Below, in pieces: positions 117 to 50,534 of a DNA stretch of 64,000 nt. Within the stretch, counting starts at the first letter, position 1. Each line of letters starts with the position of its first letter. The notes under the pieces are model-generated. The model did not search any database and had not been told where the DNA came from. It saw only the letters and a list, made by a program, of their open reading frames with translations. Both the position numbers and the translations under genes were made by a program. The stretch is from a virus: positions 128,001-192,000 of IMG/VR virus record IMGVR_UViG_3300028840_006907. One strand, written 5' to 3'.

Positions 117-202
117 GGAGGATATCCGAATTGGTTTAGGGGCTCGGTTGGAAACCGAGTGGGCTCAATGCCTTGCAGGTTCGATCCCTGTGTCCTCCGC
201 CA
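117..202 (+). tRNA. tRNA-Ser (anticodon GGA)
   Basis: Acceptor GGAGGAT/GTCCTCC, anticodon stem CTCGG/CCGAG with loop TTGGAAA, long variable arm, T-loop TTCGATC, encoded CCA. Confidence 0.8.
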
Positions 203-282
203 CTTTTTCAAAAAAACTTCCGAACAATTCTTGTTCTCATGTCGTATCATATATAGGGGCTGTTTTTTATGAAAGGTAAGAT

Positions 283-624
283 ATGGGTCGATACCAAATA
301 GCACTGGAGAAAAAACCTAAAAAGATCGAGTTAAATAAATCCGATACTAAGAAAATTGATATTTCTAATAAATCTGAATTAAAACAATCATATTTCACCG
401 ATCTTAAAGTGATGATGGAGTTTATGGCTGAAAAGGGTGGTAATTGGATACCAGAAAAAGATCTTTATTTTGAAGAGATCCCTTTAGTAGCCTATAAATC
501 TGATAACGAAATGGTTGTCATTACTGCAAAGGATATGCATCTTACGGAAAAGAATATAACGGAAATGGACAGAAAATCTTTTAGATCTGAGAAACCTCTT
601 CGATTTAAAAAGTTTTTTGAGTAG
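283..624 (+). CDS. small protein, MGRY-IAL N-terminal motif family (paralog 1 of 6)
   Basis: ORF track; N-terminus MGRYQIALEKK; shares internal EFM...W-x-P motif with paralogs; ends TAG. Confidence 0.5.
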   Translation: MGRYQIALEKKPKKIELNKSDTKKIDISNKSELKQSYFTDLKVMMEFMAEKGGNWIPEKDLYFEEIPLVAYKSDNEMVVITAKDMHLTEKNITEMDRKSFRSEKPLRFKKFFE

Positions 625-636
625 GATAGGAATCAT

Positions 637-945
637 ATGAGCCGGTATCGTATCATAGTTGATGAAAAAAAAGAAGAAGAACAGATCCATTTAAGACAGG
701 AACGAAATAAAGAAGAGAATAATCGCATATTTGACGATGTAAAAAAGATGAGTGACTTTATGTCCCTATTAAATTCAGTATGGGTTCCTACTCATTTTGG
801 GTTCATTATGAAATACAGGGAATTTGAAGGAGTGATAACAGTTATTATAAGTACTGCAGAGTATAATAAAACAAAAGATCTTTTACCCAAAGAATTGTTA
901 ATACAATTCGAAGCTCATGGAGTGGTAGTTTTTAAAAAATCATGA
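637..945 (+). CDS. small protein, MSRY N-terminal motif family (paralog 2)
   Basis: ORF track; N-terminus MSRYRIIVDEKK; AGGA upstream of ATG; C-terminal YNKTK motif. Confidence 0.5.
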   Translation: MSRYRIIVDEKKEEEQIHLRQERNKEENNRIFDDVKKMSDFMSLLNSVWVPTHFGFIMKYREFEGVITVIISTAEYNKTKDLLPKELLIQFEAHGVVVFKKS

Positions 946-1262
946 GTAGATACAAAATAGCATTAAATAAGGGAAAGTCTCCCGAAGATAAAGAATTAAA
1001 TGAGTATTTTGCAAATAAACCAGAACATAGTATTTCGTTTATAAGTGCTGTAGATGTTTATAATTTTTTATCTGAAGAAAGTGATAAATGGTTCCCAGAT
1101 TCTGGGACACCTTTGATAATAAGTTATGTAAATAAAGATAAAAATAGATCGTTTATGATAACTCAATATAACTGGAATAAGACAAAGCATTTTATACCAG
1201 TATCTATTTTGAGATCCATTGAAGAAAGAGCACCGTTTTTCGTATCAAAAAAGAGAGTATGA
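942..1262 (+). CDS. small protein, MSRY N-terminal motif family (paralog 3)
   Basis: ORF track; N-terminus MSRYKIALNKGK; YNWNKTK motif; ATGA overlap with upstream gene. Confidence 0.5.
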   Translation: MSRYKIALNKGKSPEDKELNEYFANKPEHSISFISAVDVYNFLSEESDKWFPDSGTPLIISYVNKDKNRSFMITQYNWNKTKHFIPVSILRSIEERAPFFVSKKRV

Positions 1263-1263
1263 A

Positions 1264-1788
1264 ATGGGACAAGAAATTTGGTTGTACCCAGATCCGGTTC
1301 AGATACCTAAGGTAAAAGAGTACGTTAAACTTTTAGGTAAGAGGGTGGATGATTATAATTACATCGATGGACCGGATTTTGATGGTTGGGAAATGAATTG
1401 TTGGATTGAATGGACAACAGTGGATCCCGAATGGGAGAGTGATACAGAAGAATACAGTTTTGAAGGTATGGATGAATTCTTAGAAATAGGTTATCAATCT
1501 CATCACTATAAGGGTGATTTCGCAGAATGTATTGCCTGGGAAATTAAAAAACGATTTACAATACTTAAAGTTGGTTGGGATTCAATTGGATGGTCCACTC
1601 AGTTCTGGGATAATGAGCCTTTTGATTTTCAGATAAAGATGAGACAAAAAACATTGAAAAAAGATTTGAGTGATGAAATGCGAAGGGATTTCGAAGAAGA
1701 AATAGTTATGATAAAAAAGATAAAAGAAGGCTGTATGGGTTTTGCCAAAGAGCTGTTCTTAAAAGCTGATCAATTACTAAAAAATTAA
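1264..1788 (+). CDS. hypothetical protein
   Basis: ORF track frame; start moved to ATG at 1264 (MGQEIWLYPD) to avoid overlap with upstream gene. Confidence 0.4.
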   Translation: MGQEIWLYPDPVQIPKVKEYVKLLGKRVDDYNYIDGPDFDGWEMNCWIEWTTVDPEWESDTEEYSFEGMDEFLEIGYQSHHYKGDFAECIAWEIKKRFTILKVGWDSIGWSTQFWDNEPFDFQIKMRQKTLKKDLSDEMRRDFEEEIVMIKKIKEGCMGFAKELFLKADQLLKN

Positions 1789-1790
1789 AT

Positions 1791-1946
1791 ATGGGTAGAT
1801 ACGAGATAGCACTAGATAAGCAACCGAAGAGAGTTTTAAATTTGAATCATTTTAAACAACAAGCCCAAACTGTTATATCAAGCTGGCCTAAATGGAAAAG
1901 ACAGGGAGCGGGTAAAGAGGAAACAGCTCCAATTAAAAGAAAATGA
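1791..1946 (+). CDS. small protein, MGRY-IAL N-terminal motif family (short paralog 4, 51 aa)
   Basis: Translated by eye: MGRYEIALDKQPKRVLNLNHFKQQAQTVISSWPKWKRQGAGKEETAPIKRK; below the track length cut-off. Confidence 0.4.
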   Translation: MGRYEIALDKQPKRVLNLNHFKQQAQTVISSWPKWKRQGAGKEETAPIKRK

Positions 1947-1964
1947 GTTATTAAGGGATACAGT

Positions 1965-2318
1965 ATGAGTCGTTTTGATATTGCCTTGGGTAAAGAACTC
2001 CCAAAGGTAAAAAAGACCAAAAATTCTAAGAAAAGTAAGAAGGCTAAAAAGAAGGTTATTTCTCCGTATGATTTAAAGAGTAATGTAACTGTATTTACGA
2101 ATGCTCGTAAGATGTATGAGTTTATGGGTTTGGCAATAGGTTCTTGGCATCCTGTTATTTCTGACCCACCGGTGATTGGTTATCATAACCCGGCTTGGGA
2201 AGGGATCTCGGTTACAATTAGTGTTGAAGATTACAACAAAACAAAAAGTCCAATTAAGGGTATTAAGATGCCTGTTATGAGTCCTGTTGAAATTGTAGGA
2301 AATTTGTTTAGAAAATAA
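1965..2318 (+). CDS. small protein, MSRF-IAL N-terminal motif family (paralog 5)
   Basis: ORF track; N-terminus MSRFDIALGKE; EFM...SWHPV and YNKTK motifs. Confidence 0.5.
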   Translation: MSRFDIALGKELPKVKKTKNSKKSKKAKKKVISPYDLKSNVTVFTNARKMYEFMGLAIGSWHPVISDPPVIGYHNPAWEGISVTISVEDYNKTKSPIKGIKMPVMSPVEIVGNLFRK

Positions 2319-2900: not shown

Positions 2901-3137
2901 ATGTCTAGAAGTTACAGAAAGCCGTATGTAAAAGACGGCTATGGATCAAAGGGCAAAAGATTCATGAAGAATTATGCCAATCGGGTGGTAAGGCATTCTA
3001 AGGATGTTCCGAATGGCAGAGCCTATAAGAAATTATTTTGTTCTTATGATATTTGTGATTATTATTTCTACGTGGAAGTAAAGAGAAAGGATGATCCTTA
3101 TTTTGAACCAGAGTTCTGGAAATACGCCAGAAAATGA
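2901..3137 (+). CDS. hypothetical protein
   Basis: ORF track; GGAG upstream of ATG. Confidence 0.4.
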   Translation: MSRSYRKPYVKDGYGSKGKRFMKNYANRVVRHSKDVPNGRAYKKLFCSYDICDYYFYVEVKRKDDPYFEPEFWKYARK

Positions 3138-4749: not shown

Positions 4750-4833
4750 GATCGGGTGGAGGAATTGGGATACTCAGCAAATTTAAGCTTTGCTGTCCTT
4801 TGTGACATGCGGGTTCGATTCCCGCCCCGATTA
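4750..4833 (+). tRNA. tRNA-Leu (anticodon TAA)
   Basis: Acceptor GATCGGG/CCCGATT, anticodon stem GCAAA/TTTGC with loop TTTAAGC, long variable arm, T-arm GCGGG-TTCGATT-CCCGC, A73. Confidence 0.75.
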
Positions 4834-4846
4834 TTATATAATAATT

Positions 4847-5323
4847 ATGGTTTACAAAAATTGTAGAACATACGGCCCTTATGAAGGTAAAGATGGTAGA
4901 CTAAGAGTATGTGTAGTTTACCCTGATTTGAGTAAAAGAACAGTATCATATCCTAAATATCTTATGGAGAAACATTTGAATAGATATTTAGAAAAGAATG
5001 AAACAATAGATCATAAAGATGAAAATCCTTTAAATAATAAATTAAGTAATTTGAATATTCTTATTAAAGGTGATCATTGCCGTAAACATGCTAAGAGATT
5101 GTTACCTAGAAGTTTTAGCTGCCCTCAATGTAAGAAACCGTTTGTTTTATCAGGACGAAGATTACATGATGCTATACAAAACAGAAAAAGAGGTAAAGTG
5201 GGTCCTTTTTGTAATAAAAGATGTGGGGGAATATACGGAACAGATGTTCAAAATAAAAGAATAGAAGTTTTAGATGTGATTCAAATACCTGTTGAATATG
5301 AGCCTAAAATAAAAGAGATATAG
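4847..5323 (+). CDS. HNH endonuclease
   Basis: DHKDENPLNNKLSNL...GDHCRKH motif; track ORF starts inside tRNA-Leu, so start moved to ATG 4847. Confidence 0.55.
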   Translation: MVYKNCRTYGPYEGKDGRLRVCVVYPDLSKRTVSYPKYLMEKHLNRYLEKNETIDHKDENPLNNKLSNLNILIKGDHCRKHAKRLLPRSFSCPQCKKPFVLSGRRLHDAIQNRKRGKVGPFCNKRCGGIYGTDVQNKRIEVLDVIQIPVEYEPKIKEI

Positions 5324-7640: not shown

Positions 7641-8192
7641 ATGAACAACTATAAGACATTAGTATTAGCAGGTGGAGTACCTATTGACGTGGAAAGCTGG
7701 CAAAAATCATTAACAAAATGTATATCGGGAAAGGCCATAGCAATCAAGAATAGGAAAGAAATTGCCTTTGAGACTAATGGAGTAGTTACATACATACCTT
7801 CGATCATTGTAATCTTAAATACCTATTTTATGGGTAGATTAAGGTTTGTAAATACGGTTCCTCTTAATAGGCGTAATTTGTGGCTTAGGGATAAAGGTCA
7901 TTGTATGTATTGTAATAGTAAAATAACGACAGAAGAAGTGACTTTTGATCATGTCATTCCTCAAAGTAAAGGCGGTAAAACAACTTGGACGAACGTTGTC
8001 TGCTCGTGTTCTATTTGTAATAATAAAAAAGACAATAGAACTCCAAAACAGGCTAGGATGACTTTGGTAAAAGCACCAACGGTTCCTAAACTTAGTAAAA
8101 AGGTTGTCCAAAGAATGATAAAAAAGTTGGGAACTATTTCTATTAATGAGGATTCTTGGAAAGGTTATTGGGACGTGACTTTATTGTCGTAA
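7641..8192 (+). CDS. HNH endonuclease
   Basis: CMYCNSK...FDHVIPQSKGG...NVVCSCSICNNKK HNH motif; GAGGAGG upstream. Confidence 0.6.
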   Translation: MNNYKTLVLAGGVPIDVESWQKSLTKCISGKAIAIKNRKEIAFETNGVVTYIPSIIVILNTYFMGRLRFVNTVPLNRRNLWLRDKGHCMYCNSKITTEEVTFDHVIPQSKGGKTTWTNVVCSCSICNNKKDNRTPKQARMTLVKAPTVPKLSKKVVQRMIKKLGTISINEDSWKGYWDVTLLS

Positions 8193-8868: not shown

Positions 8869-9246
8869 ATGGCAAAGAAAAAAATATTCGAAATCGATAA
8901 AGACAGTATTGTTAAAGCAACTAAAGAGGGTTATCTATATTGTTGTACTATACCACCTCATGGAGAAATCCGTGGGGATAGAAATAAGCGTTATATTTAT
9001 TACCATAGAGCTTTAATGGAACAAAAATTAGGTCGTTTTCTTAAATCTTGGGAAGAGGTTGACCATAAAAATGGGGATAAAACTGATAACCGCCTATCAA
9101 ATCTTGTTTTAAAGGTACATGGAGAGCATCAACGTGATCATGCCAATAATGGTAATAGCTTCTGGAAAAAGAGTCCTCTGAATAAACCTGGTGCGAAACG
9201 AAAGGCTCATAGAGTAATAGCTAAGTTTTTGGGAGAAATGTGTTAA
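8869..9246 (+). CDS. HNH homing-endonuclease-like protein
   Basis: VDHKNGDKTDNRLSNL...HGEHQRDH motif. Confidence 0.55.
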   Translation: MAKKKIFEIDKDSIVKATKEGYLYCCTIPPHGEIRGDRNKRYIYYHRALMEQKLGRFLKSWEEVDHKNGDKTDNRLSNLVLKVHGEHQRDHANNGNSFWKKSPLNKPGAKRKAHRVIAKFLGEMC

Positions 9247-9478
9247 AGAATACTTTTTCGGCTTCTTGTGGAGTATACTTTTTAAATAAGAGTGATATCT
9301 TTTTTCCTTCAATATCTAAAATTCTTTCTACATAAGGTTGCCCTATTTCAGGTATAAATTTATTTGCAAATTTATTATTTTTCTGTATTTTCAATGAATG
9401 GTGATATCTTAATTTTGAAGGAATATCTTTTATTCTTTTTTTAGGTTTTTTCTCTAAAATTATCTCATATCTACCCAT
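9221..9478 (-). CDS. small protein, MGRY N-terminal motif family (paralog 6)
   Basis: N-terminus MGRYEIILEKKPKK, near-identical to paralog 1 N-terminus but on the opposite strand about 9 kb away. Confidence 0.45.
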   Translation of the reverse strand: MGRYEIILEKKPKKRIKDIPSKLRYHHSLKIQKNNKFANKFIPEIGQPYVERILDIEGKKISLLFKKYTPQEAEKVFFNTFLPKT

Positions 9479-9481
9479 GAT

Positions 9482-9985
9482 TTAAAAAGTTTTCCATGAA
9501 GTCCCTTCTGAATTACCTGCTCCGGGTCCAGCAGTAAAACCGCAGGTCTTACAAGTAGGGTACTGCCAGCATGTGGTACCATTTCCTTCATAAGTCCGAC
9601 AACAACGACAGTTTGTATATGTATATTTTATATCAATTCCCCCACATTTGGGGCATGGGTCTTGTCCGTTTCTTAGAATACCTTTTTCATCAAATAACTT
9701 TTTCAGTCGTCTTTTTTCTTTGTATAGGTTCTCAATCTTTTTATCTATTTTTTCAATCATTTTAGTAAAGATAGGATTAGCCTTGTTCCAAGCAATTCGG
9801 ATTGATTCATATTCTGCTCCTAAAGCACAAATACTTACCTTTACTGTATTATTACATTTTTTATTTGAGCACCGGGCCTCACCGGGATTAAAGGTTGTAT
9901 AACCGCAATGCCCAGCCAAGATTCCTTTGGTACCACATTTTAAACAGGGGTTAACCTTTTTATTAATAGGAGTTTTTAGTTCCAT
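9482..9985 (-). CDS. Cys-rich protein (multiple CxxC)
   Basis: ORF track; CLKCG, CPKCGG, CKTCG and other CxxC pairs. Confidence 0.4.
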   Translation of the reverse strand: MELKTPINKKVNPCLKCGTKGILAGHCGYTTFNPGEARCSNKKCNNTVKVSICALGAEYESIRIAWNKANPIFTKMIEKIDKKIENLYKEKRRLKKLFDEKGILRNGQDPCPKCGGIDIKYTYTNCRCCRTYEGNGTTCWQYPTCKTCGFTAGPGAGNSEGTSWKTF

Positions 9986-16763: not shown

Positions 16764-17390
16764 ATGATTGAGACACTTTTTTATTTTTGCTATTATTCTT
16801 ATTTACTAGGTGACTTAAAAAGTACTGAGATGTACTATTCTCTATTGAGAAAAGAATTCAAAGAACATGGCCGAAAAGATTCATTAGAATCTCACCAATA
16901 CCGAGAATTGAAAAAAGTTAAAGATGCTCTTGATTCTGGAACCATATCCAAGAAGGAATGGGTAGCTGATAAAGTTATTGTACCCAAGATTAATTCAGAG
17001 ATAAAAATAAAACAAGATGAATTGGTCCGGAAGATCCATATGGAGGGGCTAGAACAGCTTAAAGTTATCTTGGATGATTGTGTGCAGATATATAATATTG
17101 AGCATCCTTGTGGCTCCTACGGGGCTGTAGATATGGTTTATAAAGGATTGAATACGATCTATCCGGTGGAAGTGAAACGAAGTCGGGGAGAACATGATTT
17201 AATTGGACAAATAGGAAAGTATGATTTATATCATCGTTTAAGGCTCCATTACAAACATTATAAACATGTTCAACCGGTAACGATATGTCATTCTTATCAG
17301 AAATTTGCTTTAAATGAGTTAAGACAAATGAGGGTTTTGACCTTAATTTATACCATAATTAATAAGAAAATTACTCTAAATGTAATATAA
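16764..17390 (+). CDS. hypothetical protein
   Basis: ORF track; first + strand gene after the divergent intergenic region 16600-16763. Confidence 0.4.
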   Translation: MIETLFYFCYYSYLLGDLKSTEMYYSLLRKEFKEHGRKDSLESHQYRELKKVKDALDSGTISKKEWVADKVIVPKINSEIKIKQDELVRKIHMEGLEQLKVILDDCVQIYNIEHPCGSYGAVDMVYKGLNTIYPVEVKRSRGEHDLIGQIGKYDLYHRLRLHYKHYKHVQPVTICHSYQKFALNELRQMRVLTLIYTIINKKITLNVI

Positions 17391-17487
17391 ATTACTTTTC
17401 TATTGACTTTAAGATCATTTAGGGGTATATTTAAATTAAATTACCTTTTGTTAGAAAACGATAATTTCTAAAGAGTGTGTCAAAGAA

Positions 17488-17565
17488 ATGCTGAGAATGA
17501 CTTTTAATAGTAACCCAAATCCACAACCAAAGAATTTGCTATTCGTTGGGGTTGTTATGATATAG
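17488..17565 (+). CDS. small peptide ORF (25 aa), copy A of a repeated peptide-plus-hairpin unit
   Basis: Translated by eye: MLRMTFNSNPNPQPKNLLFVGVVMI; similar to the peptide at 18036..18110. Confidence 0.25.
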   Translation: MLRMTFNSNPNPQPKNLLFVGVVMI

Positions 17566-17589
17566 TCATAATCTCTACCTTGGATCAGG

Positions 17590-17629
17590 AAAAGCCCCGG
17601 CAAATGAGAGTTCTCCGGGGCTTTTCTTA
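17590..17629 (+). terminator. terminator-like hairpin with conserved loop AATGAGAGTTC (copy A)
   Basis: Stem AAAAGCCCCGG / CCGGGGCTTTT, 14 nt loop CAAATGAGAGTTCT, then T-rich tail. Confidence 0.45.
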
Positions 17630-17646
17630 TTTAATAATGTACTAAT

Positions 17647-17979
17647 ATGAAATTCGGTTCTATCACAGGTTTTTATAAGGGAAGGATAGAACTTATGAAT
17701 AAAGTATCTTGGGATGAGTATAATAGTATGGTAAATTCAGCAATTGATAGTGGGTATCCTTATGCTAGTGGTATTTTAATAGCTGAATTAGAATCCATAG
17801 CTAAGAATCTAACTCATCAAAATAAAAAGATAGAGGAAACATTAGTAAAAGAAGATAAGGATAAATTGGAAATTAGATTGGAATCAGTAAAGTCATGGAA
17901 TAAAGATACTATTGAGGGTATCGAAAGAGCTATTAAAAAAGCTGATGAAGCAGTAAAAAAATTAAGTGTTGACATTTAA
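17647..17979 (+). CDS. hypothetical protein
   Basis: ORF track. Confidence 0.4.
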   Translation: MKFGSITGFYKGRIELMNKVSWDEYNSMVNSAIDSGYPYASGILIAELESIAKNLTHQNKKIEETLVKEDKDKLEIRLESVKSWNKDTIEGIERAIKKADEAVKKLSVDI

Positions 17980-18035
17980 TACAATTTGTGGTATCTTTAA
18001 ATTTACATAGTTTTTATTATAAGGAAAGTTTTAAA

Positions 18036-18110
18036 ATGTTGTTTACAAAAATACTCAATAATAACCCGCAACCTAATCAACCAACGAATATTTATTTGTC
18101 GGGGGCCTGA
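18036..18110 (+). CDS. small peptide ORF (24 aa), copy B of the repeated unit
   Basis: Translated by eye: MLFTKILNNNPQPNQPTNIYLSGA; AAGGAAAG upstream. Confidence 0.25.
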   Translation: MLFTKILNNNPQPNQPTNIYLSGA

Positions 18111-18140
18111 GTATTGTCCAAAAGTTAAACTGAAATCACA

Positions 18141-18175
18141 ACCCCCGGCGAATGAGAGTTCACCGGGGGTTTTTA
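18141..18175 (+). terminator. terminator-like hairpin with conserved loop AATGAGAGTTC (copy B)
   Basis: Stem ACCCCCGG / CCGGGGGT, loop CGAATGAGAGTTCA, then TTTTT. Confidence 0.45.
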
Positions 18176-18179
18176 TTTT

Positions 18180-18255
18180 TGGGATGTCGCCTAACGGTAT
18201 GGCACCTGACTCTGGCTCAGGAATAATCAGGGTTCAAGTCCTTGCATCCCAGCCA
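18180..18255 (+). tRNA. tRNA-Gln (anticodon CTG)
   Basis: Acceptor TGGGATG/CATCCCA with U1-A72 (typical of bacterial tRNA-Gln), anticodon stem CCTGA/TCAGG with loop CTCTGGC, T-loop TTCAAGT, encoded GCCA. Confidence 0.75.
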
Positions 18256-18279
18256 ATTAACTTTAGGAAACAACAATAA

Positions 18280-18353
18280 CGGGGTGTGGCCTAGTCTGGT
18301 AAGGCGTCTGCTTCGGGAGTAGAAAATCGGAGGTTCAAATCCTCTCATCCCGA
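18280..18353 (+). tRNA. tRNA-Pro (anticodon CGG)
   Basis: Acceptor CGGGGTG/CATCCCG with C1-G72, D-stem GCCT/AGGC, anticodon stem TCTGC/GTAGA with loop TTCGGGA, T-loop TTCAAAT. Confidence 0.75.
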
Positions 18354-18371
18354 TTAATAAAGGTAAAAATT

Positions 18372-18926
18372 ATGAGACCCATGATATATCCTAAAAAGAA
18401 TAGGAAAATAAAAAGACCACGAAGATCGAGACCATTAAAAAGATGTGTTCATATTGATGGAAAAGAATGGAGGTGGGAAACAACAGGTCACTGGGATAGT
18501 GATGCAGGTAGTTATGGTTGTTTAACTGATCAGAGCGTTAAAATACTTTCTCCTGATAATAAATTTTTTTCTATACGTGCTCATGAAGTAATGAAATGTG
18601 AACCGATAAGATGGGAATGTTGTGTTGGTGAAAAATTAATAACAGTTTTACCGGGGAAAGTAAAACAGTATATAATAGATAATTTAATTGATCATGATAT
18701 TTCAAGATCGTTAAGGAGACGCATTCATATAGATGGTAGAGAATGGGGTTGGCAGTTTAGTAAAGGAAATCCTGCATATCAGCTCTGTGGAGTATCTGTC
18801 CGTTCTCCTGATAATCGGTATTTATGGATTTATGCAAAAGAGTTAGGATACGAGATTAAACCATCAGTAATTAAAAAGTATATAATTGATAATTTATTAT
18901 ATCGGGGTATAGCGCAGCCTGGTTAG
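18372..18926 (+). CDS. hypothetical protein with internal tandem duplication
   Basis: Two repeated halves (HIDGKEWRWETTGHW...SPDNKFFSIRAHEV / HIDGREWGWQFSKGN...SPDNRYLWIYAKEL; KQYIIDNLIDH / KKYIIDNLLYR); 3' end overlaps tRNA-Pro(GGG). Confidence 0.4.
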   Translation: MRPMIYPKKNRKIKRPRRSRPLKRCVHIDGKEWRWETTGHWDSDAGSYGCLTDQSVKILSPDNKFFSIRAHEVMKCEPIRWECCVGEKLITVLPGKVKQYIIDNLIDHDISRSLRRRIHIDGREWGWQFSKGNPAYQLCGVSVRSPDNRYLWIYAKELGYEIKPSVIKKYIIDNLLYRGIAQPG

Positions 18927-18980
18927 CGCGTCTGAATGGGGTTCAGAAGGTCGCCAGTTCAACTCTGGCTACCCCGACCA
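18903..18980 (+). tRNA. tRNA-Pro (anticodon GGG)
   Basis: Acceptor CGGGGTA/TACCCCG, D-stem GCGC/GCGC, anticodon stem TCTGA/TCAGA with loop ATGGGGT, T-arm GCCAG-TTCAACT-CTGGC, encoded ACCA. Confidence 0.8.
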
Positions 18981-19008
18981 AAGTTCTTTGAAAATTATGG
19001 GGGTGTGG

Positions 19009-19274
19009 CAGAAGGGATATGCAGTCCTCAAAAAGTAGACAGGTCTGGGTAAAACCGGGTCATTACAGGAAGTTTGTATTCGCTACTGAAACGAAACAAA
19101 GGGAAGGTAGTGTAACGCTTACGGACTGGTGCTTGCAAGGGTTTACGGAAGACACTGACACGTTGCCTGGGATCTGGAGACAGCCCAGGAGGGTTTGTAA
19201 ATAACGGCAGGAAGTCCTTTTTCCCAATAGTGAGCTTTGGATGACTTATGCCGGTTCGAATCCGGTCACCTCCA
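19009..19274 (+). ncRNA. tRNA-Ala-like element with about 190 nt insertion (interrupted tRNA or other tRNA-like RNA; identity unresolved)
   Basis: 3' end is a canonical T-arm GCCGG-TTCGAAT-CCGGT followed by CACCTCC-A; the only complementary 5' strand is GGGGGTG at 19009, giving a 7 bp acceptor helix with a G3-U70 wobble (the tRNA-Ala/tmRNA identity pair); no group I motifs and no tag-like ORF inside. Confidence 0.3.
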
Positions 19275-19360
19275 TCAAAATAAATTAAATAGATAGATAG
19301 GCAAACTGGCAAGCCATTTGGTTGTAATAGAAAATGTGTAGCAAGATCATAAAGACATAC

Positions 19361-19632
19361 TGGAGTGTAGCTCAGTGGCAGAGCGGGTGGCTGTCTTGGT
19401 TGGCAGCTCTTATAGGAAACTGTAAGATGAAAACTCGGTGAATTCAGGGAAACCTAAGTCTTAAACAGATATGGCAATCCTGAGCGAAGCCTTGAGAAAG
19501 GAACGTGCAGAGACTTATAGCGCCGAGCACCTAAGGTGAAAACTATGGTGATGAGATAGTCCAGGCCCTTGGGAAATCAGGGGAATTACTGTAACCACTT
19601 GGTCGGGGGTTCAAATCCCTCCACTCCAGCCA
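19361..19632 (+). tRNA. tRNA-Asn (anticodon GTT), interrupted by a group I intron in the anticodon loop
   Basis: Exons join to TGGAGTG-TA-GCTC-AGTGGCA-GAGC-G-GGTGG-CTGTTAA-CCACT-TGGTC-GGGGG-TTCAAAT-CCCTC-CACTCCA-G-CCA; U1-A72 and loop CUGUUAA match E. coli tRNA-Asn. Confidence 0.7.
19395..19591 (+). ncRNA. group I self-splicing intron (in tRNA-Asn anticodon loop, between positions 35 and 36)
   Basis: Contains group I core motifs TCAGGGAAACC, GGCAATCCTGAGC, GTGCAGAGACT (R-like) and GAGATAGTCC (S-like); 5' exon ends in U paired to G in putative guide GCAGC (P1 GCTGT/GCAGC); intron ends in G. Confidence 0.65.
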
Positions 19633-19683
19633 ATTTTAAAGGGTCCTAGAGGAATTTACTTTAAAGAAAAGGAGAAAAATTAA

Positions 19684-19884
19684 ATGAGTAAAGATGAGAA
19701 ACCTGATTATTCGAAAGATTTCGATACATGTCCTTGGTGTAATAAAATACCAAAAGTATCGAAACATTTCAGATATGATGAATGGCAACTGATCCATCGT
19801 TGTGATAAATTACTTACTGTAATTAGTATGGATTGGACTGAATTAGATAGTCTTAAAAATCGATGGAATCGACCTAAGAAATGA
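19684..19884 (+). CDS. hypothetical small protein
   Basis: ORF track; AAGGAGAAAAA upstream; CPWCNK in translation. Confidence 0.4.
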   Translation: MSKDEKPDYSKDFDTCPWCNKIPKVSKHFRYDEWQLIHRCDKLLTVISMDWTELDSLKNRWNRPKK

Positions 19885-20156
19885 CAGAATGTACTATATG
19901 TGAAAGAGAAACTCCTGAGAAATATGTGGAGAAACATCACTTGACTCCTTGTAGCCGAGGAGGAAAGGATAAGGAGAAAACACTTACTTGTATTGATTGC
20001 GGAGATCAGGTACATCGATTATTTACGAATAAAGAATTGGAGAGAGACTATTATACACTCGAAAAATTATTAGCTCATCCTAAAATCCAGAAATGGAAGA
20101 AATGGGTTAAGAATAAGAGATTCGGGATATGTATGAAACGAAAAAAGAAGAGATAA
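19881..20156 (+). CDS. zinc-binding small protein
   Basis: ORF track; CTICERE...CIDCGDQVH; ATGA overlap with upstream gene. Confidence 0.4.
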   Translation: MTECTICERETPEKYVEKHHLTPCSRGGKDKEKTLTCIDCGDQVHRLFTNKELERDYYTLEKLLAHPKIQKWKKWVKNKRFGICMKRKKKR

Positions 20157-20163
20157 TATATAA

Positions 20164-20239
20164 CGGGCGGTCGCCTAATCTGGTATGGCACCACATTTGG
20201 GATGTGGAATAACTGGAAGTTCAAATCTTCTCCGCCCGA
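20164..20239 (+). tRNA. tRNA-Pro (anticodon TGG)
   Basis: Acceptor CGGGCGG/CCGCCCG with C1-G72, anticodon stem CCACA/TGTGG with loop TTTGGGA, T-arm GGAAG-TTCAAAT-CTTCT, A73; variable region slightly long. Confidence 0.65.
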
Positions 20240-20263
20240 TATATTTTTAAATCAATAAGTTAC

Positions 20264-20339
20264 TGGGATGTAGTTCAGTTGAAAGAACACCGGAATTTGG
20301 ATCCGGGGGTCGCAGGTTTGAGCCCTGCCATCCCAGCCA
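20264..20339 (+). tRNA. tRNA-Gln (anticodon TTG)
   Basis: Acceptor TGGGATG/CATCCCA with U1-A72, D-stem GTTC/GAAC, anticodon stem CCGGA/TCCGG with loop ATTTGGA, T-arm GCAGG-TTTGAGC-CCTGC, encoded GCCA. Confidence 0.8.
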
Positions 20340-20537
20340 TTTAATTTTTTTATCAATATATTTACCACAAAGACGTATATTATTTATACAACTTAAAAAT
20401 AGGAATAATATATGACATAGATAAAAATACCACCCTAGATCCTCAAAATATTCAAACCTCCTTAAAACACGGTTATTATACCAAATGGTGTTATACCAAA
20501 CAGTACAATATTCATTCATTTAAACAGGAGAATAACC

Positions 20538-21115: not shown

Positions 21116-21189
21116 GCGCCTGAGGCTCTGAGGTGAGCAACTTGGACTCTAAATCCAAGTTTTTCAGGGTTCGACTCCCTACAGGCGCA
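21116..21189 (+). tRNA. putative amber suppressor tRNA (anticodon CTA)
   Basis: Acceptor GCGCCTG/CAGGCGC, A73, D-stem GCTC/GAGC, anticodon arm ACTTGGA-CTCTAAA-TCCAAGT (loop has U33, CUA, A37), T-loop TTCGACT; non-canonical 7 bp anticodon stem or 3 nt D/anticodon linker and short D-loop. Confidence 0.5.
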
Positions 21190-25899: not shown

Positions 25900-27624
25900 T
25901 TAATTCATGGCAATTGAGTATATTTTTTTATTGTCAACAAATAACACTTTCATATGTTCATGGTATAATCGCATAGATACATTAATCGGTGTATTCGTAA
26001 TATCCTTACTTCCTTTATTATTTTTAAATAGAGACATTTTATCATTATCGACAGAGATGCACATTCCAGTAGGTAATGTAATAAAATTAACTGGATGGTA
26101 ATCAATCATATCTTCCTGTTTAATATCATAGCTAGTATGGGTTTTATCAAAACAAATTGTATATTTAAAATAACTTCCCTGTTTTTCTGTGACCACTATA
26201 CAGATTCCTTTATCATACCGGGCATCAATGATTCTTTGGCCGTCCAATTCTTTTACATAAGTATTAATACATTTCCCTCTTTCGAAAGGAATAGCTAATC
26301 GTATCTTTGTGAAATCATCCTGTACAATAACACCTCGGAAAGACTTATATGATTTGCTTATTCTACATACAGTTTTAGTCGTATGAATAACTCTCTGGAA
26401 TTTTTCAAAATGATTCTCTATCAATCTTCCATTATTAATGGTGTAAATATACCCATTATACCCCATTATGTCTTCAGCTTTGATGTCGGATATTGATTTA
26501 TTATTTAAATCAAAGAACTCAGCTTTTAAATTCTTGAAATAAACTATTAAGGGATCCGCTCCATAAGCTTCACACATGCCTACTATGGTTGATTTTAAAG
26601 GTTTATGGAACTTAACCACTTTATCTTTATTCTGGTCATATATGGCTTTAGAAGTTATCACAAAGCGTTTATCATTAAAGAAGAAGATATTCCGAATCGG
26701 TTCATTTACTTCGAATACTTTTTCTACTATGAAATCACCTCTACTAGTTATAGTTCTGGCAACTGCTGCTACAACCACGACCTCGTCCGGTAATGGCGGG
26801 ATGGATCTCTCATTATTTTTAAATTCTGATACATACCATTCAAAATGTTTTTTAGGGATCACAGAATAATCTTGGCACATGGCCGGTAATGGCTTTGCTC
26901 CTTTATCAAAATTTGAGACTCCATCATCCATCCTTTTAATCCATTGTTTCGGTTTATAATCGATATGTCTACTTTTGTAAGGGTGAATACCCAGATACAT
27001 TTGATAAGTTACGACACCCCAGGAGAACCAGTCAGAGTACTCAGTAAATTGAGCATTCTTAACCTGTCGATCTCGAACACTATCCATAAGAGCATCTGCT
27101 GGGAAGCTTTTTGTTTTCCAGGCATCCACATCAATGTGATAAACGGTCTTTAAATCACCGCTAAGAAGGAAATTCATCTCATTATAATCAACTACTAGGA
27201 AGCCATTTTTATGGATGTATTGTAGGGCTTTCTGCATTTTAAGAACTAGGTCAGCTATATCTGTTGGACTTAAATGTTTATTGTCTCTGAAAGTCTTAGT
27301 AAATACTTGGCAGAGAAATTCAACTCCATCAACATATCTCATTGTAAACCCAATGGGTGTGTGGTTCCTCACTTCATATAAAGGTTCTATGGGTGACAGG
27401 ATATCATCTCGTTTTAATTCGGTCAATTCGTGTATTTTTGCTTCTGGTATCATATTTTTAGTATCATGATAAATTTTATATGCAATCCCATTTAGATAAA
27501 AAACTGTTCCAAAACCACCAGAAGCTTTATAATTATCATCAGTCAAAGTAACAATTTCTTTTGTTGTCTGAACTTTGAATGACTTCTTTATTATCGGGTT
27601 CATTTTTGTTTTCGGTAAAATCAT
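25900..27624 (-). CDS. Ser/Thr protein kinase-like protein with large C-terminal domain
   Basis: Gly-rich loop GGFGTVF, lysine in IAYKIY, catalytic-loop-like HKNGFLVVDYNEMNFLL, DVDAW, SDWFSWGVVTY; about 330 aa C-terminal region unassigned. Confidence 0.55.
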   Translation of the reverse strand: MILPKTKMNPIIKKSFKVQTTKEIVTLTDDNYKASGGFGTVFYLNGIAYKIYHDTKNMIPEAKIHELTELKRDDILSPIEPLYEVRNHTPIGFTMRYVDGVEFLCQVFTKTFRDNKHLSPTDIADLVLKMQKALQYIHKNGFLVVDYNEMNFLLSGDLKTVYHIDVDAWKTKSFPADALMDSVRDRQVKNAQFTEYSDWFSWGVVTYQMYLGIHPYKSRHIDYKPKQWIKRMDDGVSNFDKGAKPLPAMCQDYSVIPKKHFEWYVSEFKNNERSIPPLPDEVVVVAAVARTITSRGDFIVEKVFEVNEPIRNIFFFNDKRFVITSKAIYDQNKDKVVKFHKPLKSTIVGMCEAYGADPLIVYFKNLKAEFFDLNNKSISDIKAEDIMGYNGYIYTINNGRLIENHFEKFQRVIHTTKTVCRISKSYKSFRGVIVQDDFTKIRLAIPFERGKCINTYVKELDGQRIIDARYDKGICIVVTEKQGSYFKYTICFDKTHTSYDIKQEDMIDYHPVNFITLPTGMCISVDNDKMSLFKNNKGSKDITNTPINVSMRLYHEHMKVLFVDNKKIYSIAMN

Positions 27625-30451: not shown

Positions 30452-31624
30452 TTATATCATTAAATCTTTTTTACAATGTACAATCATATCTTTATTACCA
30501 GTGTTCTTTCCTTCGTCATCTGATAACTTGACTGTGTCAATCCATCTGCCATTTATCATACAGGCTATCATTTTAATAACAATATTCAATGGTATGACAT
30601 CTACGTCATTTGTAAACCAGGTTCCAATTCCATATGCATCTCTGATCAAATTGATGCAAGCTTTATGGATAGATTTCACTTTATCTATACTGTTAATAGC
30701 ATCAGAGAATACCAATGTTTTAAGCATCGGATCAATTCTTAATTTTTGGTATTTACTTACTGATTTAGTAATGAAATCAAAAGGTGAACCACTATCTTGC
30801 CGGAGACCATCAAAAAGTTTCGCAAAAAATGTATTGAATGTTTTTAGGAATACATCAGTAGTAAATGTATCTGGAAGAGCAATTCCAAGATCTCCTTGAA
30901 ATATATCAGACCATATTTTCAGAGCCATCTCATTAGCCATACGAAATCCATACATAGCTGCATGGAATTGATACCATTCATGAGCTTTTGTTCCTATGGG
31001 AGTTAAATTGTATTTCTTTGCTAGATAAACATTACTAGGTCCAGAGAAACAACTACCTAGATATTGCTTTGCATCACGAACTACTTCATCATGATTCTTT
31101 AGAGAGTATCTTCTACGAGTACCAAATTCAGCGATGGGTACTCCGATTTCTTTAAGAGCCATAAATTTCAGACGATTTCTTTCTTTACGTTCCTTACGAA
31201 TCATCTTTGTCTTACCAGTTTTCTCAAAATAAAGTTGACTGATAGTAGCCATCAAAGGTACTTCCCAAAGAATCTTTCGGTACCAGGGTCCTATATACTT
31301 ACAATGAAAATTAGATCCTTCTTGTGTTAATATTATCTCATCTGGGTTATACCGGTACCCACTAAGAAGATCGATATAGGCAGGATTTAAATAATAACAT
31401 TTTTCTTTAAGAAAGTCTATATCATCTTTGCTTAATGTAAAACCACGAAATGTGTCTATAATTCTCCTTAATTCATCGGCAAAGCCATCTGGAAACTCTC
31501 TACCATCACGGTTTATAAATTGGTACATAGCGAGAGCATTGGGGTATTTCTGACATGCCCCACACTGCATAGTGAATTTATACACATCATTATCGAGTAT
31601 ACCAGCTACGTACTCATTCTCCAT
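30452..31624 (-). CDS. pncB: nicotinate phosphoribosyltransferase (PncB-like)
   Basis: DNDVYKFTM, EFGTRRRYS, GPSNV...GTKAHEW match the NAPRTase signature pattern. Confidence 0.65.
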   Translation of the reverse strand: MENEYVAGILDNDVYKFTMQCGACQKYPNALAMYQFINRDGREFPDGFADELRRIIDTFRGFTLSKDDIDFLKEKCYYLNPAYIDLLSGYRYNPDEIILTQEGSNFHCKYIGPWYRKILWEVPLMATISQLYFEKTGKTKMIRKERKERNRLKFMALKEIGVPIAEFGTRRRYSLKNHDEVVRDAKQYLGSCFSGPSNVYLAKKYNLTPIGTKAHEWYQFHAAMYGFRMANEMALKIWSDIFQGDLGIALPDTFTTDVFLKTFNTFFAKLFDGLRQDSGSPFDFITKSVSKYQKLRIDPMLKTLVFSDAINSIDKVKSIHKACINLIRDAYGIGTWFTNDVDVIPLNIVIKMIACMINGRWIDTVKLSDDEGKNTGNKDMIVHCKKDLMI

Positions 31625-36343: not shown

Positions 36344-38209
36344 TTATGACGCTTCGACTTCTTCTATGAATTCTTGCTCTGCAGGTTCTGGAACTGGTTC
36401 TGTTACCTGTTCTTCGACCTGGGGAGATTCTTTAGGTTTTGTGGAAGTCATCATATTAGACACATTCTTCACTACATTTGGAAGATTATCACCTAATCCT
36501 GCTTCTTTTAATAATTGATCTACAACAGGAGCCTGAGCGCGATATCCAAGAAGTTGATCCAATAAAGATTGAGTAGAAAAACCTCCTGCAGACATTTTTG
36601 ACCCACCGTTACCATTACTATGGCCATTGCTACCGGTCAAACCTGATACGTTGATAACTTTGAAAGCTTCAATTTTTTCAAGGGGTTTTACACTGGATTC
36701 AATTACTGCTGATATGTGTTCAATTATTTGGAGTTTTACACGCATATCAACAATGTCTTTAGAGAGCCTGTTTTCAGCTTCATTGAGTTTTTCCTGACCT
36801 TCAGCTTCGACTTCGTATTTTCTTTCATCGGCATCAGCTTGAATTTTGATAGCCTCAGCTTTGGCTTTGGCTTCAATTTTGATAGCCTCAGCACGATCTT
36901 GAGCTGCTTCTTTTTCAGCCTGTGCAAGAACTTTAATTTTGGCTGCATCTGATCCGGCTACTTCTTCAGCTCTAATAATTGTAATTTCTCTGGCACGATT
37001 AGCAATTTCTTTTTCACGAGCGGTGGTTACTTTTTCCTCTGCAGAAATAGCGAGTGCTCTAGCTTCATTTGCTTCCTGATCAGCCAAAGAGGTTTCTTTA
37101 GATTTATTAGCAACTTCAATATCTCTTTCCTGTTCAGCAAGTTTTATTGCTTTCTGTTTTTCGATGGTAGCTGACTCTACTGCTTGTTCTTTAACAATAG
37201 TAGCTGATTCAATTGCTTGTTCTTTTTCAATATTGGCTTCTTGTAAAGCTTTTTCTTTTATAATATTTGCTTCGGCAATGGCTTGTTCTTTTCTAATATT
37301 CTGTTCTTCAAGAGCTTTGGTAGTTTCGATTGTTTTCTTTTTAACTTCTTTTTCAGATTCTATCCTTGCTTCTTGGGCTATCTTATTTTGTTCAGCATTA
37401 AATTTTTCTTTTGTGGCATTTTCTTCTGCTGTCCTAGTAGCAATTTCACGTTCTTGTTCAAGTCTAGAATACTCTTTTTCTTTATTAATTTTTAAAGTCT
37501 GTTGTTCAGCTTGAAGATTTTTTGTTTCAATTTTTACTAGATTATCTCTTTCAATCTCATTACGTTCTTTTCTACGCTCTTCGATGATTCTAGTTAATGC
37601 TGTCAATCCCTCAGCATCAAAAGCATTATTCTCATTGAAGTGCTCTCTACTGGTTTGATCAAAACCTGTAAGTGACACAGTTTCAAGCTCTAAGCCATTT
37701 TTCTTAAGGTCTTCCAGAACATTGTTTTGGACTTTTTGCACAAAATCAGCACGTTGCTCATGCAGTTCTCTCATTTGCATTTGAGCAGCAACAGCTCTTA
37801 AGGCGTCAACGAATTTACCTTCAATAAGTTCACGTAGTTTCTCTGGGTCAAGAGTGCGGTCACCAAGAGTTTGAGCGGCATTTGCTATGGAATCAGCTTC
37901 TGGTTGTACCCGCATATAAAACTCTACAAGAACGTCAACTCTCATACGATCTTTTGTAATTAATGCGTCCTTTTCATTTCTTCTTACCGGTAATTTTAAA
38001 GTACTAAGTTTTACCCAGGTTATTTGATGAAGTACAGGTAATACTACTGCTCCACCTTCTTTTATAACTTTTTTCTTGCCCATACCAGTACGGACAAAAG
38101 CCATATCAGATGAAGCTTTTACGTACATCCTAGCAATAATTAATCCTATAACAATTAGTGCCACTAGGATTATACCTGCCATAATTAAAATAGGCATAAG
38201 GTTTTCCAT
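36344..38209 (-). CDS. flotillin-like SPFH/band-7 protein
   Basis: N-terminal TM helix, SPFH-like region, then long E/A/K coiled-coil with repeats (EANIIKEKALQEANIEKEQAIESATIVKEQAVESATIEKQKAI). Confidence 0.55.
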   Translation of the reverse strand: MENLMPILIMAGIILVALIVIGLIIARMYVKASSDMAFVRTGMGKKKVIKEGGAVVLPVLHQITWVKLSTLKLPVRRNEKDALITKDRMRVDVLVEFYMRVQPEADSIANAAQTLGDRTLDPEKLRELIEGKFVDALRAVAAQMQMRELHEQRADFVQKVQNNVLEDLKKNGLELETVSLTGFDQTSREHFNENNAFDAEGLTALTRIIEERRKERNEIERDNLVKIETKNLQAEQQTLKINKEKEYSRLEQEREIATRTAEENATKEKFNAEQNKIAQEARIESEKEVKKKTIETTKALEEQNIRKEQAIAEANIIKEKALQEANIEKEQAIESATIVKEQAVESATIEKQKAIKLAEQERDIEVANKSKETSLADQEANEARALAISAEEKVTTAREKEIANRAREITIIRAEEVAGSDAAKIKVLAQAEKEAAQDRAEAIKIEAKAKAEAIKIQADADERKYEVEAEGQEKLNEAENRLSKDIVDMRVKLQIIEHISAVIESSVKPLEKIEAFKVINVSGLTGSNGHSNGNGGSKMSAGGFSTQSLLDQLLGYRAQAPVVDQLLKEAGLGDNLPNVVKNVSNMMTSTKPKESPQVEEQVTEPVPEPAEQEFIEEVEAS

Positions 38210-49013: not shown

Positions 49014-50534
49014 TTATGAATAGTTTTTTCTCCCTACAATGGTGAAGGAATTCTTTTCTTGATTATAATTTGAGTACATGATAATTAAATTATTCCCCAT
49101 ATCTTTTTTAACTTCATCAAAGAATTGTGGTACTCCACCCATCATCATATGAACGATAAAATATCCTCCAGGTCGTATAAGGCCCTTACAATTTTCATAA
49201 ACAGGTTTATTCTGTGGACTAAATCCATGTGGTCCTAGATAAAGTACAAATGGAAAACTCTCTCTTTTAAATTCGGTTCCAAGATCGTCTATATCTGGTT
49301 TAGCGAATTTATTGGTATCAACTGTAATAACATTATGATGTTTATAATAACCGGAAAAGAAACAAAGTCCTTTATCAGCAGAGAGCATATATTTGTCTAC
49401 TTCGGATAAGTCGGGAGTTATTAACATTTCTTTCATGTAATTAAAATGTTGCCCAGTGAATTTGATTTTTAAATGATCAATTGCCTGTAAAACGTCCTCA
49501 GGTCTCACCTGAGTGAAGCAAGGACTAGGGTGGCCTTTGACACAAGTTCTGAAATCATGCTTGTAGCAGGGGCTACAAACCACACTAGGATCCAATCCTA
49601 TAGCATTTTTAAAGTATCTCATTCTTACTTCACTTGGAAATGGCCCATAAAGTCCCACTAATGGTTTATCTAGTGCCCCAGCTACTTGTACCATGAATGT
49701 GTCAGGAGAGATCACCATATCGAATCTTGTGGCTAATATCATAACTTGTCTAACACTGTAGTTGGTGGCTAAATAGACATTATTATTGCCTCCTTTGAAA
49801 TAACTTCCTATTACGTTATGTTGTGGCATTCCTATTAGCACAATTTTAACTTTGTTCTCTCTTGCAAGTATATCAATGATAACTTTCATTTTTTCTTTAG
49901 GAAAATTACGTAATGGAGCAGAAGTTTCCATTTGGATTCCGATAACATATTCTTCGGATTTAATCCCTATAATTGCAAGTTCTTTTTCAAGCCAATCCAT
50001 TTCTTCTTTTACATAAAAGAGTTGTGGTTTTTTGTCCTCAGGAGGAAGATGGATGCTATCAATACTGAAATAACTAAAAAACATATCTACAGCGTGAGTT
50101 TTCTTTGATTGCTCACTAGAAGATTCTATGATACCTTGGAACATGAGATGGTAATCGACTTCTTCCAATAACTGAGCATCAAAAGGCATATCATAGAGTC
50201 CGTCTATTTCCGGAACGTTTTCAAGTGATTGCTTACATCCTGAAGCTACCCGTATGAAAGAAGTAGGATATTTTTTCTTAAGGTATCGGAGAACTGGACT
50301 AAGAAATAAGATATCACCAATACCACCAGTTCTCCAGCACATTAATTTTTTATTGGTTAAATCCTCACCTTTATATGGTCTGTATATGGTTTCAATAGGA
50401 TAAGACATTCCTATATTTTGAGGAAATAAATTACGGTATTGCCCTTCGATGTCTTCAGCCATAACATAACTATGATTGGCTTCAAGAGTTTTATCAGCAT
50501 GGGTAAATGTTTCAGATATTTCAACTTTTCTCAT
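49014..50534 (-). CDS. glycosyltransferase family 9 (heptosyltransferase-like) domain protein
   Basis: WRTGGIGDILFLSPVLRYLKKKYP and VISPDTFMVQVAGALDKPLVGLYGP resemble GT9 N- and C-terminal motifs; extra terminal regions. Confidence 0.45.
   Translation of the reverse strand: MRKVEISETFTHADKTLEANHSYVMAEDIEGQYRNLFPQNIGMSYPIETIYRPYKGEDLTNKKLMCWRTGGIGDILFLSPVLRYLKKKYPTSFIRVASGCKQSLENVPEIDGLYDMPFDAQLLEEVDYHLMFQGIIESSSEQSKKTHAVDMFFSYFSIDSIHLPPEDKKPQLFYVKEEMDWLEKELAIIGIKSEEYVIGIQMETSAPLRNFPKEKMKVIIDILARENKVKIVLIGMPQHNVIGSYFKGGNNNVYLATNYSVRQVMILATRFDMVISPDTFMVQVAGALDKPLVGLYGPFPSEVRMRYFKNAIGLDPSVVCSPCYKHDFRTCVKGHPSPCFTQVRPEDVLQAIDHLKIKFTGQHFNYMKEMLITPDLSEVDKYMLSADKGLCFFSGYYKHHNVITVDTNKFAKPDIDDLGTEFKRESFPFVLYLGPHGFSPQNKPVYENCKGLIRPGGYFIVHMMMGGVPQFFDEVKKDMGNNLIIMYSNYNQEKNSFTIVGRKNYS

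Follow-up and report, generated by a model that had tools for sequence, protein, structure and literature searches.

The DNA analysed here, hereafter the window, is a 64,000-nt stretch of viral DNA (positions 128,001 to 192,000 of IMG/VR record IMGVR_UViG_3300028840_006907). It is a fragment of a huge phage with a GC content of 33%, and contigs encoding the same proteins reach 469,617 bp. Six of its small open reading frames (ORFs), all starting with ATG, begin with nearly the same decapeptide, hereafter the tag, which follows the pattern M-[GS]-R-[YF]-x-I-[AI]-[LV]-x-[KE]. The original prediction had picked out these six ORFs, and a six-frame regular-expression scan of the 64 kb indeed returned them and no others. 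The mean number of tag matches in 200 shuffled controls was 0.0, and the 10 kb upstream of the window (L005) contained 0 matches. The tagged ORFs, named by the first base of their start codons, and the ORF interrupting their array are as follows.

283..624, + strand: ORF 283, paralog A (113 aa); tag MGRYQIALEK, K-rich linker, alpha/beta domain, TAG stop codon
637..945, + strand: ORF 637, paralog B (102 aa); tag MSRYRIIVDE, E/K-rich linker, alpha/beta domain
942..1262, + strand: ORF 942, paralog C (106 aa); tag MSRYKIALNK; its start overlaps the stop codon of B (ATGA)
1264..1788, + strand: untagged 174-aa ORF interrupting the array (a gene call of L005)
1791..1946, + strand: ORF 1791 (51 aa); tag MGRYEIALDK followed by a VISSWPKWKR segment
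1965..2318, + strand: ORF 1965, paralog D (117 aa); tag MSRFDIALGK, very basic linker, alpha/beta domain; isoelectric point (pI) 10.0
9221..9478, - strand: ORF 9478 (85 aa); tag MGRYEIILEKKPKK (decapeptide MGRYEIILEK) on a basic body; pI 10.0

The codons of the tag varied between the copies (Arg as CGA, CGG, AGA or CGT; Leu as CTG, TTA, CTA or TTG; Ile and Ala codons as well). Over codons 2 to 8, the identity was 0.69 at codon positions 1 and 2 compared to 0.39 at position 3, and a comparison of the 40 nt 5' of each tagged start codon revealed no conservation. The variation among synonymous codons and the unconserved upstream DNA show that selection acts on the tag peptide and not on a DNA or RNA element, as had been predicted. 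The same observations ruled out a repeat or regulatory element lying across the start codons.

The six ORFs had been taken for six paralogs. However, the bodies of ORFs 1791 and 9478, with the tag removed, gave no match to the hidden Markov model (HMM) of the family, and the true paralogs are therefore four (ORFs 283, 637, 942 and 1965, 102 to 117 aa, or paralogs A to D), the other two being further carriers of the tag. Each paralog consists of the tag (residues 1 to 10), a charged K/E-rich linker and a domain of ~70 aa with the conserved motifs F..M.(D/E)(F/Y)M, W.P, I.I and (D/N)(Y/W)NKTK. The internal EFM..W.P and (Y/W)NKTK motifs that all six proteins had been said to share were found in these four only and were missing from ORFs 1791 and 9478; ORF 283 has MHLTEK at the YNKTK site. 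In the AlphaFold2 model of paralog A, residues 1 to 31 were disordered and residues 34 to 108 were folded. The model of paralog B, based on a 13-sequence alignment, had a mean predicted local distance difference test score of 84, with ~90 for the domain (residues 28 to 98). The body was predicted to follow the order beta-alpha-beta-beta-beta-alpha-alpha, and the tag was modelled with low confidence and was not docked on the body domain. The body domains of A to D had no family match in Pfam, PHROG or the PDB, with a best match in BFVD of E = 0.14, and the predicted fold resembles nothing known.

A HMMER search of 1.84 billion representative proteins (E <= 0.001) yielded 20 family members, nearly all beginning with M-[GSDN]-R-[YF]-x-I. 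P0012 and P0018 are called from an internal methionine, and their N-termini were left out when the tag was judged on protein records. The most distant members, P0024 and P0025, have the body without the tag. Over 20 tagged family members, the tag was the best conserved part (mean pairwise identity 58%), ahead of the body (31%) and the linker (17%), and the linker length ranged from 11 to 74 residues. Each foreign member had one clear best paralog in the window, with 34 to 56% identity and a bit score about twice that of the next paralog. The orthologs of A were P0005, P0007, P0026, P0006 and P0009 (40 to 56% identity); those of B were P0013, P0014, P0019 and P0022; those of C were P0010, P0015 and P0020; and those of D were P0011, P0016, P0017 and P0021. 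The related phage contig L009 encodes all four paralogs in the same order, and L001 encodes the first two. Since each foreign member pairs with one window paralog, A to D are, to judge from these pairings, old subfamilies of a tiny family, orthologously conserved and fixed in gene order, rather than fast-diversifying copies. The proposal that they diversify outside the tag, like the hyperplastic internal protein loci of phage T4, is not supported, given this conservation. In L009, the first gene of the array (9333-9661) is frameshifted in an A-run just past the tag (VNRYKIALCKNLKRSN stop), which could reflect an assembly error, a pseudogene or ribosomal slippage.

The 152-aa protein P0011 unites the segment found in ORF 1791 (38% identity over 47 aa, E = 1e-9) with a D-type domain, and because it joins the two in one protein, ORF 1791 looks like a 5' piece split off a 1965-type gene. 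The body of ORF 9478 had no BLAST link to any other tagged protein, and the protein was found on contigs of the source phage only. A relationship of this body with a 91-aa protein of L001 containing an FFNTF motif was considered and rejected, as the two showed no similarity.

Further carriers of the tag were sought by DNA-pattern scans of IMG/VR and Joint Genome Institute (JGI) metagenomes with back-translated tags. These gave 52 distinct tagged ORFs with the consensus M-[NSD]-R-Y-[SDE]-I-A-L-G-K-K-P-P, in which R3 and I6 were invariant, Y4 was present in 48 of 52, and position 10 was K in 42 and E in 3. The tag residues were kept across phages of 31 to 48% GC. Most tags begin within ~10 codons of an upstream stop codon, and the tag stands at the true N-terminus. 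With the tag removed, the bodies fell into the window family (35, database proteins included), a major head protein family (11) and ~25 other clusters, nearly all singletons. Unrelated bodies carry the tag, the P0024 and P0025 bodies exist without it, and AlphaFold2 does not dock it; together, these observations show that the tag is modular, independent of the attached body and not part of a conserved fold. The idea that the shared decapeptide is a modular tag was thus upheld, by the body of ORF 9478 and the ~25 unrelated bodies elsewhere as well as by the fold prediction that had been suggested as a check. We consider it very probable that the tag functions as some form of modular address.

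The contig of the untagged P0025 (L010) illustrates the variety of the bodies: it encodes three consecutive tagged ORFs of 183, 242 and at least 233 aa that are mutually unrelated and have no Pfam or PHROG match. A split terminase was considered for two of its ORFs, L010:1856 (with a Walker-A-like GSRGKGKT) and L010:2411, and was rejected, as the PHROG terminase match reached only E = 0.099 and nothing was found in Pfam or the PDB. In a relative of the source phage (L043 2542-2844, L075 2419-2721), the tag MGRYQIALGKKP heads a 100-aa body unrelated to the window family; this relative shares a 78-aa protein of the window (2901-3137) at 46% identity. A further tagged ORF (L114 2668-3165), beginning with MNRYDIALGKEVKDE.. 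and continuing with repeats that are MORN-like by eye, lies on a contig binned with a Fibrobacterota metagenome-assembled genome. This is probably a mis-binned phage contig, and the hint at a host is at best weak.

A protein search with the tag only, using a 40-aa N-terminal alignment, returned nothing, and several other pattern scans gave chance matches only. Scanning the GTDB genomes for M[DN]RYxIxLGK gave 80 scattered single matches, which is the chance level, without any recurring bacterial protein, and the tag profile had no significant match in the PDB. These two results ruled out that the tag copies the start of a host protein. The N-terminus of ribosomal protein L28 is MSRVCQVTGKRP-like; as there was no Pfam L28 match and no PDB match with the tag profile, the resemblance was treated as a coincidence. 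Full-text literature searches returned no description of such a tag, and the phage G paper does not mention it; the tag thus appears to be undescribed in the literature.

The attached body could be named in one group of carriers. Tagged ORFs of other phages, none of them window ORFs, matched phrog_2522 'major head protein' over nearly its full length (profile position ~17-45 to ~315 of 318), with E = 6e-44 (L012), 3e-30 (L014), 7.7e-25 (L016), and 3e-51 and 4.4e-39 (L036). They are homologous to gp27 of Bacillus phage G (33 to 35% identity) and to the capsid proteins of Tunturi_5 and the 485-kb uncultured phage LR745208.1. Their alignment with gp27 places the tag and a P/K-rich linker of 22 to 67 aa ahead of the start point of gp27. 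The 441,848-bp phage contig Ga0315284_10000005 contains three tandem tagged capsid-protein copies together with tagged small ORFs (L036). Elsewhere on the same contig (L044), six tagged small ORFs of 39 to 164 aa lie inside a tRNA island with 12 tRNAs. This is the setting of the window array, and both settings of the tag are therefore found in one phage, with at least 13 tagged genes in the 22 kb sampled of its 442 kb. The best phage matches of an SbcC-like ATPase encoded in the window were LR745208.1 and Tunturi_5, which are also the best matches of the tagged capsid protein, and these shared matches place the source phage in the same broad lineage as the tagged-capsid phages. A related-locus search with a single capsid-protein query gave no confirmed locus. 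The tagged major head protein of L012 (340-1434) has the motif again at its very C-terminal end (..GRNRYAIALGKKFA), and the capsid-protein copies of L036 end with ..GGR, ..GGRA and ..GRR, directly before the next tagged start.

We tentatively favour the reading that the tag acts as a sorting peptide, tethered at the N-terminus, by which proteins are recruited to the head during its assembly, in the manner of the T4 capsid-targeting sequence (CTS), and we regard this as quite possible. The first 10 to 13 residues would form a portable address peptide of one huge-phage lineage with a phage-G-type capsid protein, in which Y4, I6 and L8 make up a short hydrophobic motif resembling a strand and Arg3 is fixed, and the disordered K/E/P-rich linker of variable length would tether it to the protein that follows. 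In HK97-fold capsid proteins, the N-terminus points into the procapsid, and whatever binds the tag on the capsid proteins would therefore be expected to belong to the internal machinery of head assembly (scaffold or core, protease, or portal, for example) and to attract the other tagged proteins to that site as well. Paralogs A to D and ORFs 1791 and 9478 would be candidate internal head proteins, packaged and possibly ejected, and a maturation protease may remove the tag. The working principle of the T4 CTS would then have been reached with an unrelated sequence. Of the T4-like capsid targeting put forward by the original prediction, a link to the head gained indirect support from the phage-G-type head proteins that carry the tag elsewhere, whereas no match to the T4 CTS or its (L/I)-x-E site was obtained. 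In a wider form, which we hold as a rather doubtful possibility, the tag would be a clade-specific protein-sorting code: a 13-residue tethered address on many proteins per genome, several capsid-protein copies included, would define from sequence alone which proteins share a destination, most probably the inside of the head and then the next host cell.

Several results weigh against a destination in the head. The 64-kb window contains no head genes, and the link to the head is carried over, by sequence comparison, from other phages (36 to 43% GC) rather than seen in the source phage. The capsid proteins of phage G, Tunturi_5 and LR745208.1 have no tag, and a core motif retrieved 119 ordinary phage-G-type capsid proteins from IMG/VR, all of them untagged. 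Capsids of this type thus need no tag to assemble, and on the same comparison the tag is a derived addition in one sub-lineage. The tagged capsid-protein copies may not be real shell proteins. No conserved cleavage motif follows the tag among the 52 tagged ORFs, and the linkers are not uniformly basic, with a pI of 6.8 for paralog B. Furthermore, paralogs A to D are conserved, whereas the T4 internal proteins are hypervariable.

The association with capsid proteins, which are classic chaperone clients, would also suit a chaperone-recruitment tag, that is, a tethered site for a host or phage chaperone of the Hsp70 or GroEL type that aids the folding of the downstream protein. The core Y-x-I-A-L is hydrophobic and lies between basic residues (R3, K10, K11), in keeping with the general DnaK-binding pattern of a hydrophobic core with basic flanks, and such a tag would be optional, consistent with its absence from the 119 ordinary capsid proteins. 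It also counts for this explanation that, in T4, fusion proteins are directed to GroEL by the gp23 N-terminus (PMC3012670). However, many carriers are proteins or fragments of 39 to 100 aa that should need no chaperone, no chaperone gene was seen adjoining the tagged genes, and the invariant R3 and I6 with the near-invariant Y4 (48/52) are more specific than the degenerate motifs that chaperones bind; we consider chaperone recruitment unlikely. A sorting or control signal of another kind, directing proteins to an intracellular phage compartment or a membrane microdomain, or marking them for timed proteolysis or modification by a phage enzyme, would be equally modular and N-terminal. The density of tagged genes in the 442-kb phage (at least 13 in 22 kb) suggests a broad address system, and genes for a flotillin/SPFH protein and a protein kinase lie in the window. 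We judge such a signal improbable: the carriers include capsid-protein copies, which are destined for the head, no compartment-shell or dedicated protease gene was seen adjoining the tagged genes, and no known degron or secretion motif fits the tag.

It is also conceivable that the tag is not an address at all. The alternating hydrophobic pattern suits an edge beta-strand, which could pair with other tags or with the body as an oligomerisation element; tagged genes occur in tandem sets, and L016:3736 has two tags. The undocked tag in the AlphaFold2 models, the linkers of 11 to 74 residues, the unrelated bodies that carry the tag and the body that also exists without it all speak against self-association, which we consider quite improbable. 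A functionless relic, in which the 5' end of a gene was copied at duplication or insertion and kept for efficient translation initiation, would explain why tagged genes are often in tandem and include fragments (ORF 1791, L013:659, L014:4930), and why a stray NRYAIALGKK occurs at the end of the L012 capsid-protein gene. However, the residues have stayed the same despite divergence at third codon positions, the upstream ribosome-binding regions are unconserved, and the residues are constant across phages of 31 to 48% GC, with GC-rich Arg codons in some copies. A relic is therefore very improbable.

The flanks of the window array and the other annotated features of the window are as follows.

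117..202, + strand: tRNA-Ser(GGA), left flank of the tagged-gene array (ARAGORN)
244..256, + strand: 13-mer GTATCATATATAG, 26 nt 5' of the first tagged gene, with an exact copy in L009
2321..2397, + strand: tRNA-Met(CAT), right flank of the tagged-gene array (ARAGORN)
25900-27624, - strand: protein kinase
30452-31624, - strand: NAPRTase
36344-38209, - strand: flotillin/SPFH protein
49014-50534, - strand: heptosyltransferase-like protein
57784-58938, - strand: sliding-clamp-like protein
60057-62329, - strand: SbcD-like and SbcC-like proteins
62330-63538, - strand: RecA

The tagged array is enclosed by a tRNA island, as are the arrays of tagged small ORFs in L001, L009 and L044; the window has 13 tRNA genes between 117 and 21189. 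The exact copy of GTATCATATATAG in L009 lies at 9297-9309, 23 nt 5' of the first tagged gene of the array. The first tagged proteins of the two arrays are only ~46% identical, yet the 13-mer is exact, and it is a candidate promoter or leader element of the array. The untagged 174-aa ORF that interrupts the window array had no Pfam or PHROG match and is not in the L009 or L001 arrays.

One of the window tRNAs (21116-21189) has a CUA anticodon and would decode TAG as sense. Reading TAG as sense gave 0 additional ORFs of at least 300 aa, and since the long ORFs became no longer, the standard code appears to be in use within the window itself. Paralog B starts in frame with A, 12 nt past the TAG stop codon of A (622-639), and if the tRNA decodes TAG, an A-B fusion with a second tag inside would form. 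Two tag copies occur naturally within one ORF in L016:3736.

Among the window tRNA genes lie HNH-type endonuclease genes and many small CxxC zinc-finger-like ORFs (4790-5323, 7641-8192, 8869-9246); the genes at 7641 and 8869 have syntenic copies in both L001 and L009. Accessory and replication genes occupy the minus strand from 11000 to 63538. The related contig L001, which has two of the paralogs, encodes Cas7, Csd1 (type I-C-like) and an AcrVA2-like protein at 17051-20348.

Hardly any huge phage has been cultivated, and the majority of huge-phage genes still lack an assigned function. Should the tag prove to load proteins into the head, the packaged and probably injected proteins of a whole huge-phage clade could be recognised by a simple rule at the sequence level. 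Such packaged proteins would be prime candidates for roles in early host take-over and anti-defence, and the tag might be put to use for filling very large capsids with foreign proteins. Even with a destination other than the head, an address common to capsid-protein copies and ~25 unrelated families would be new phage cell biology that can be tested.

N-terminal targeting peptides on phage proteins are already known, and the tag of the huge phages extends well beyond the window. In Staphylococcus phage 80alpha, the capsid and scaffold proteins have an L27-like N-terminal extension that is cut by the host protease Prp. Like the huge-phage tag, this is a short N-terminal motif common to several head proteins, in which an alternating hydrophobic stretch leads to a small residue and on to lysines. 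However, its motif is ..LNLQFF|ASKKG, and the chance-level GTDB scan indicates that no host ribosomal protein extension was copied in the huge phages. The delta domain, or N-terminal propeptide, of HK97-type capsid proteins is likewise an N-terminal addition to an HK97-fold capsid protein that is expected inside the procapsid. It is, however, a helical scaffold of ~100 residues known from the capsid protein only, whereas the addition described here is a 13-residue motif with a linker of 22 to 67 aa that is also found on many non-capsid proteins. The cargo-loading peptides of encapsulins resemble the tag in that a short peptide with a flexible linker brings diverse cargo to the interior of an HK97-fold shell. 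In contrast to the tag, which is also present on shell-protein homologs, they are usually C-terminal and not known on the shell protein itself, and the tag contains no encapsulin-type motif.

The comparison with T4 concerns the principle and not the sequence. The T4 CTS is MKTYQEFIAE, of which only M1 and Y4 coincide with the huge-phage tag, and a short N-terminal propeptide is also found on gp24, the T4 vertex protein and a capsid-protein paralog. Position 10 of the huge-phage tag is mostly K (42/52) rather than the E that ends the (L/I)-x-E site cut by a gp21-type prohead protease, and no conserved acidic residue follows the tag. The tag also differs in being followed by a long disordered linker and in having full capsid-protein copies among its carriers. 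The window paralogs are conserved, unlike the hypervariable T4 internal proteins (IPs), and their packaging and cleavage are predictions. In T4, diverse internal proteins share only the CTS, which brings them into the scaffolding core (PMC3012670). The CTS of IPI, IPII and IPIII and the tag described here are alike in being ~10-residue peptides at the extreme N-terminus of unrelated small, mostly basic proteins, and if the tag indeed directs its carriers to the head, it would provide an independent second case of the capsid-targeting principle known from T4.

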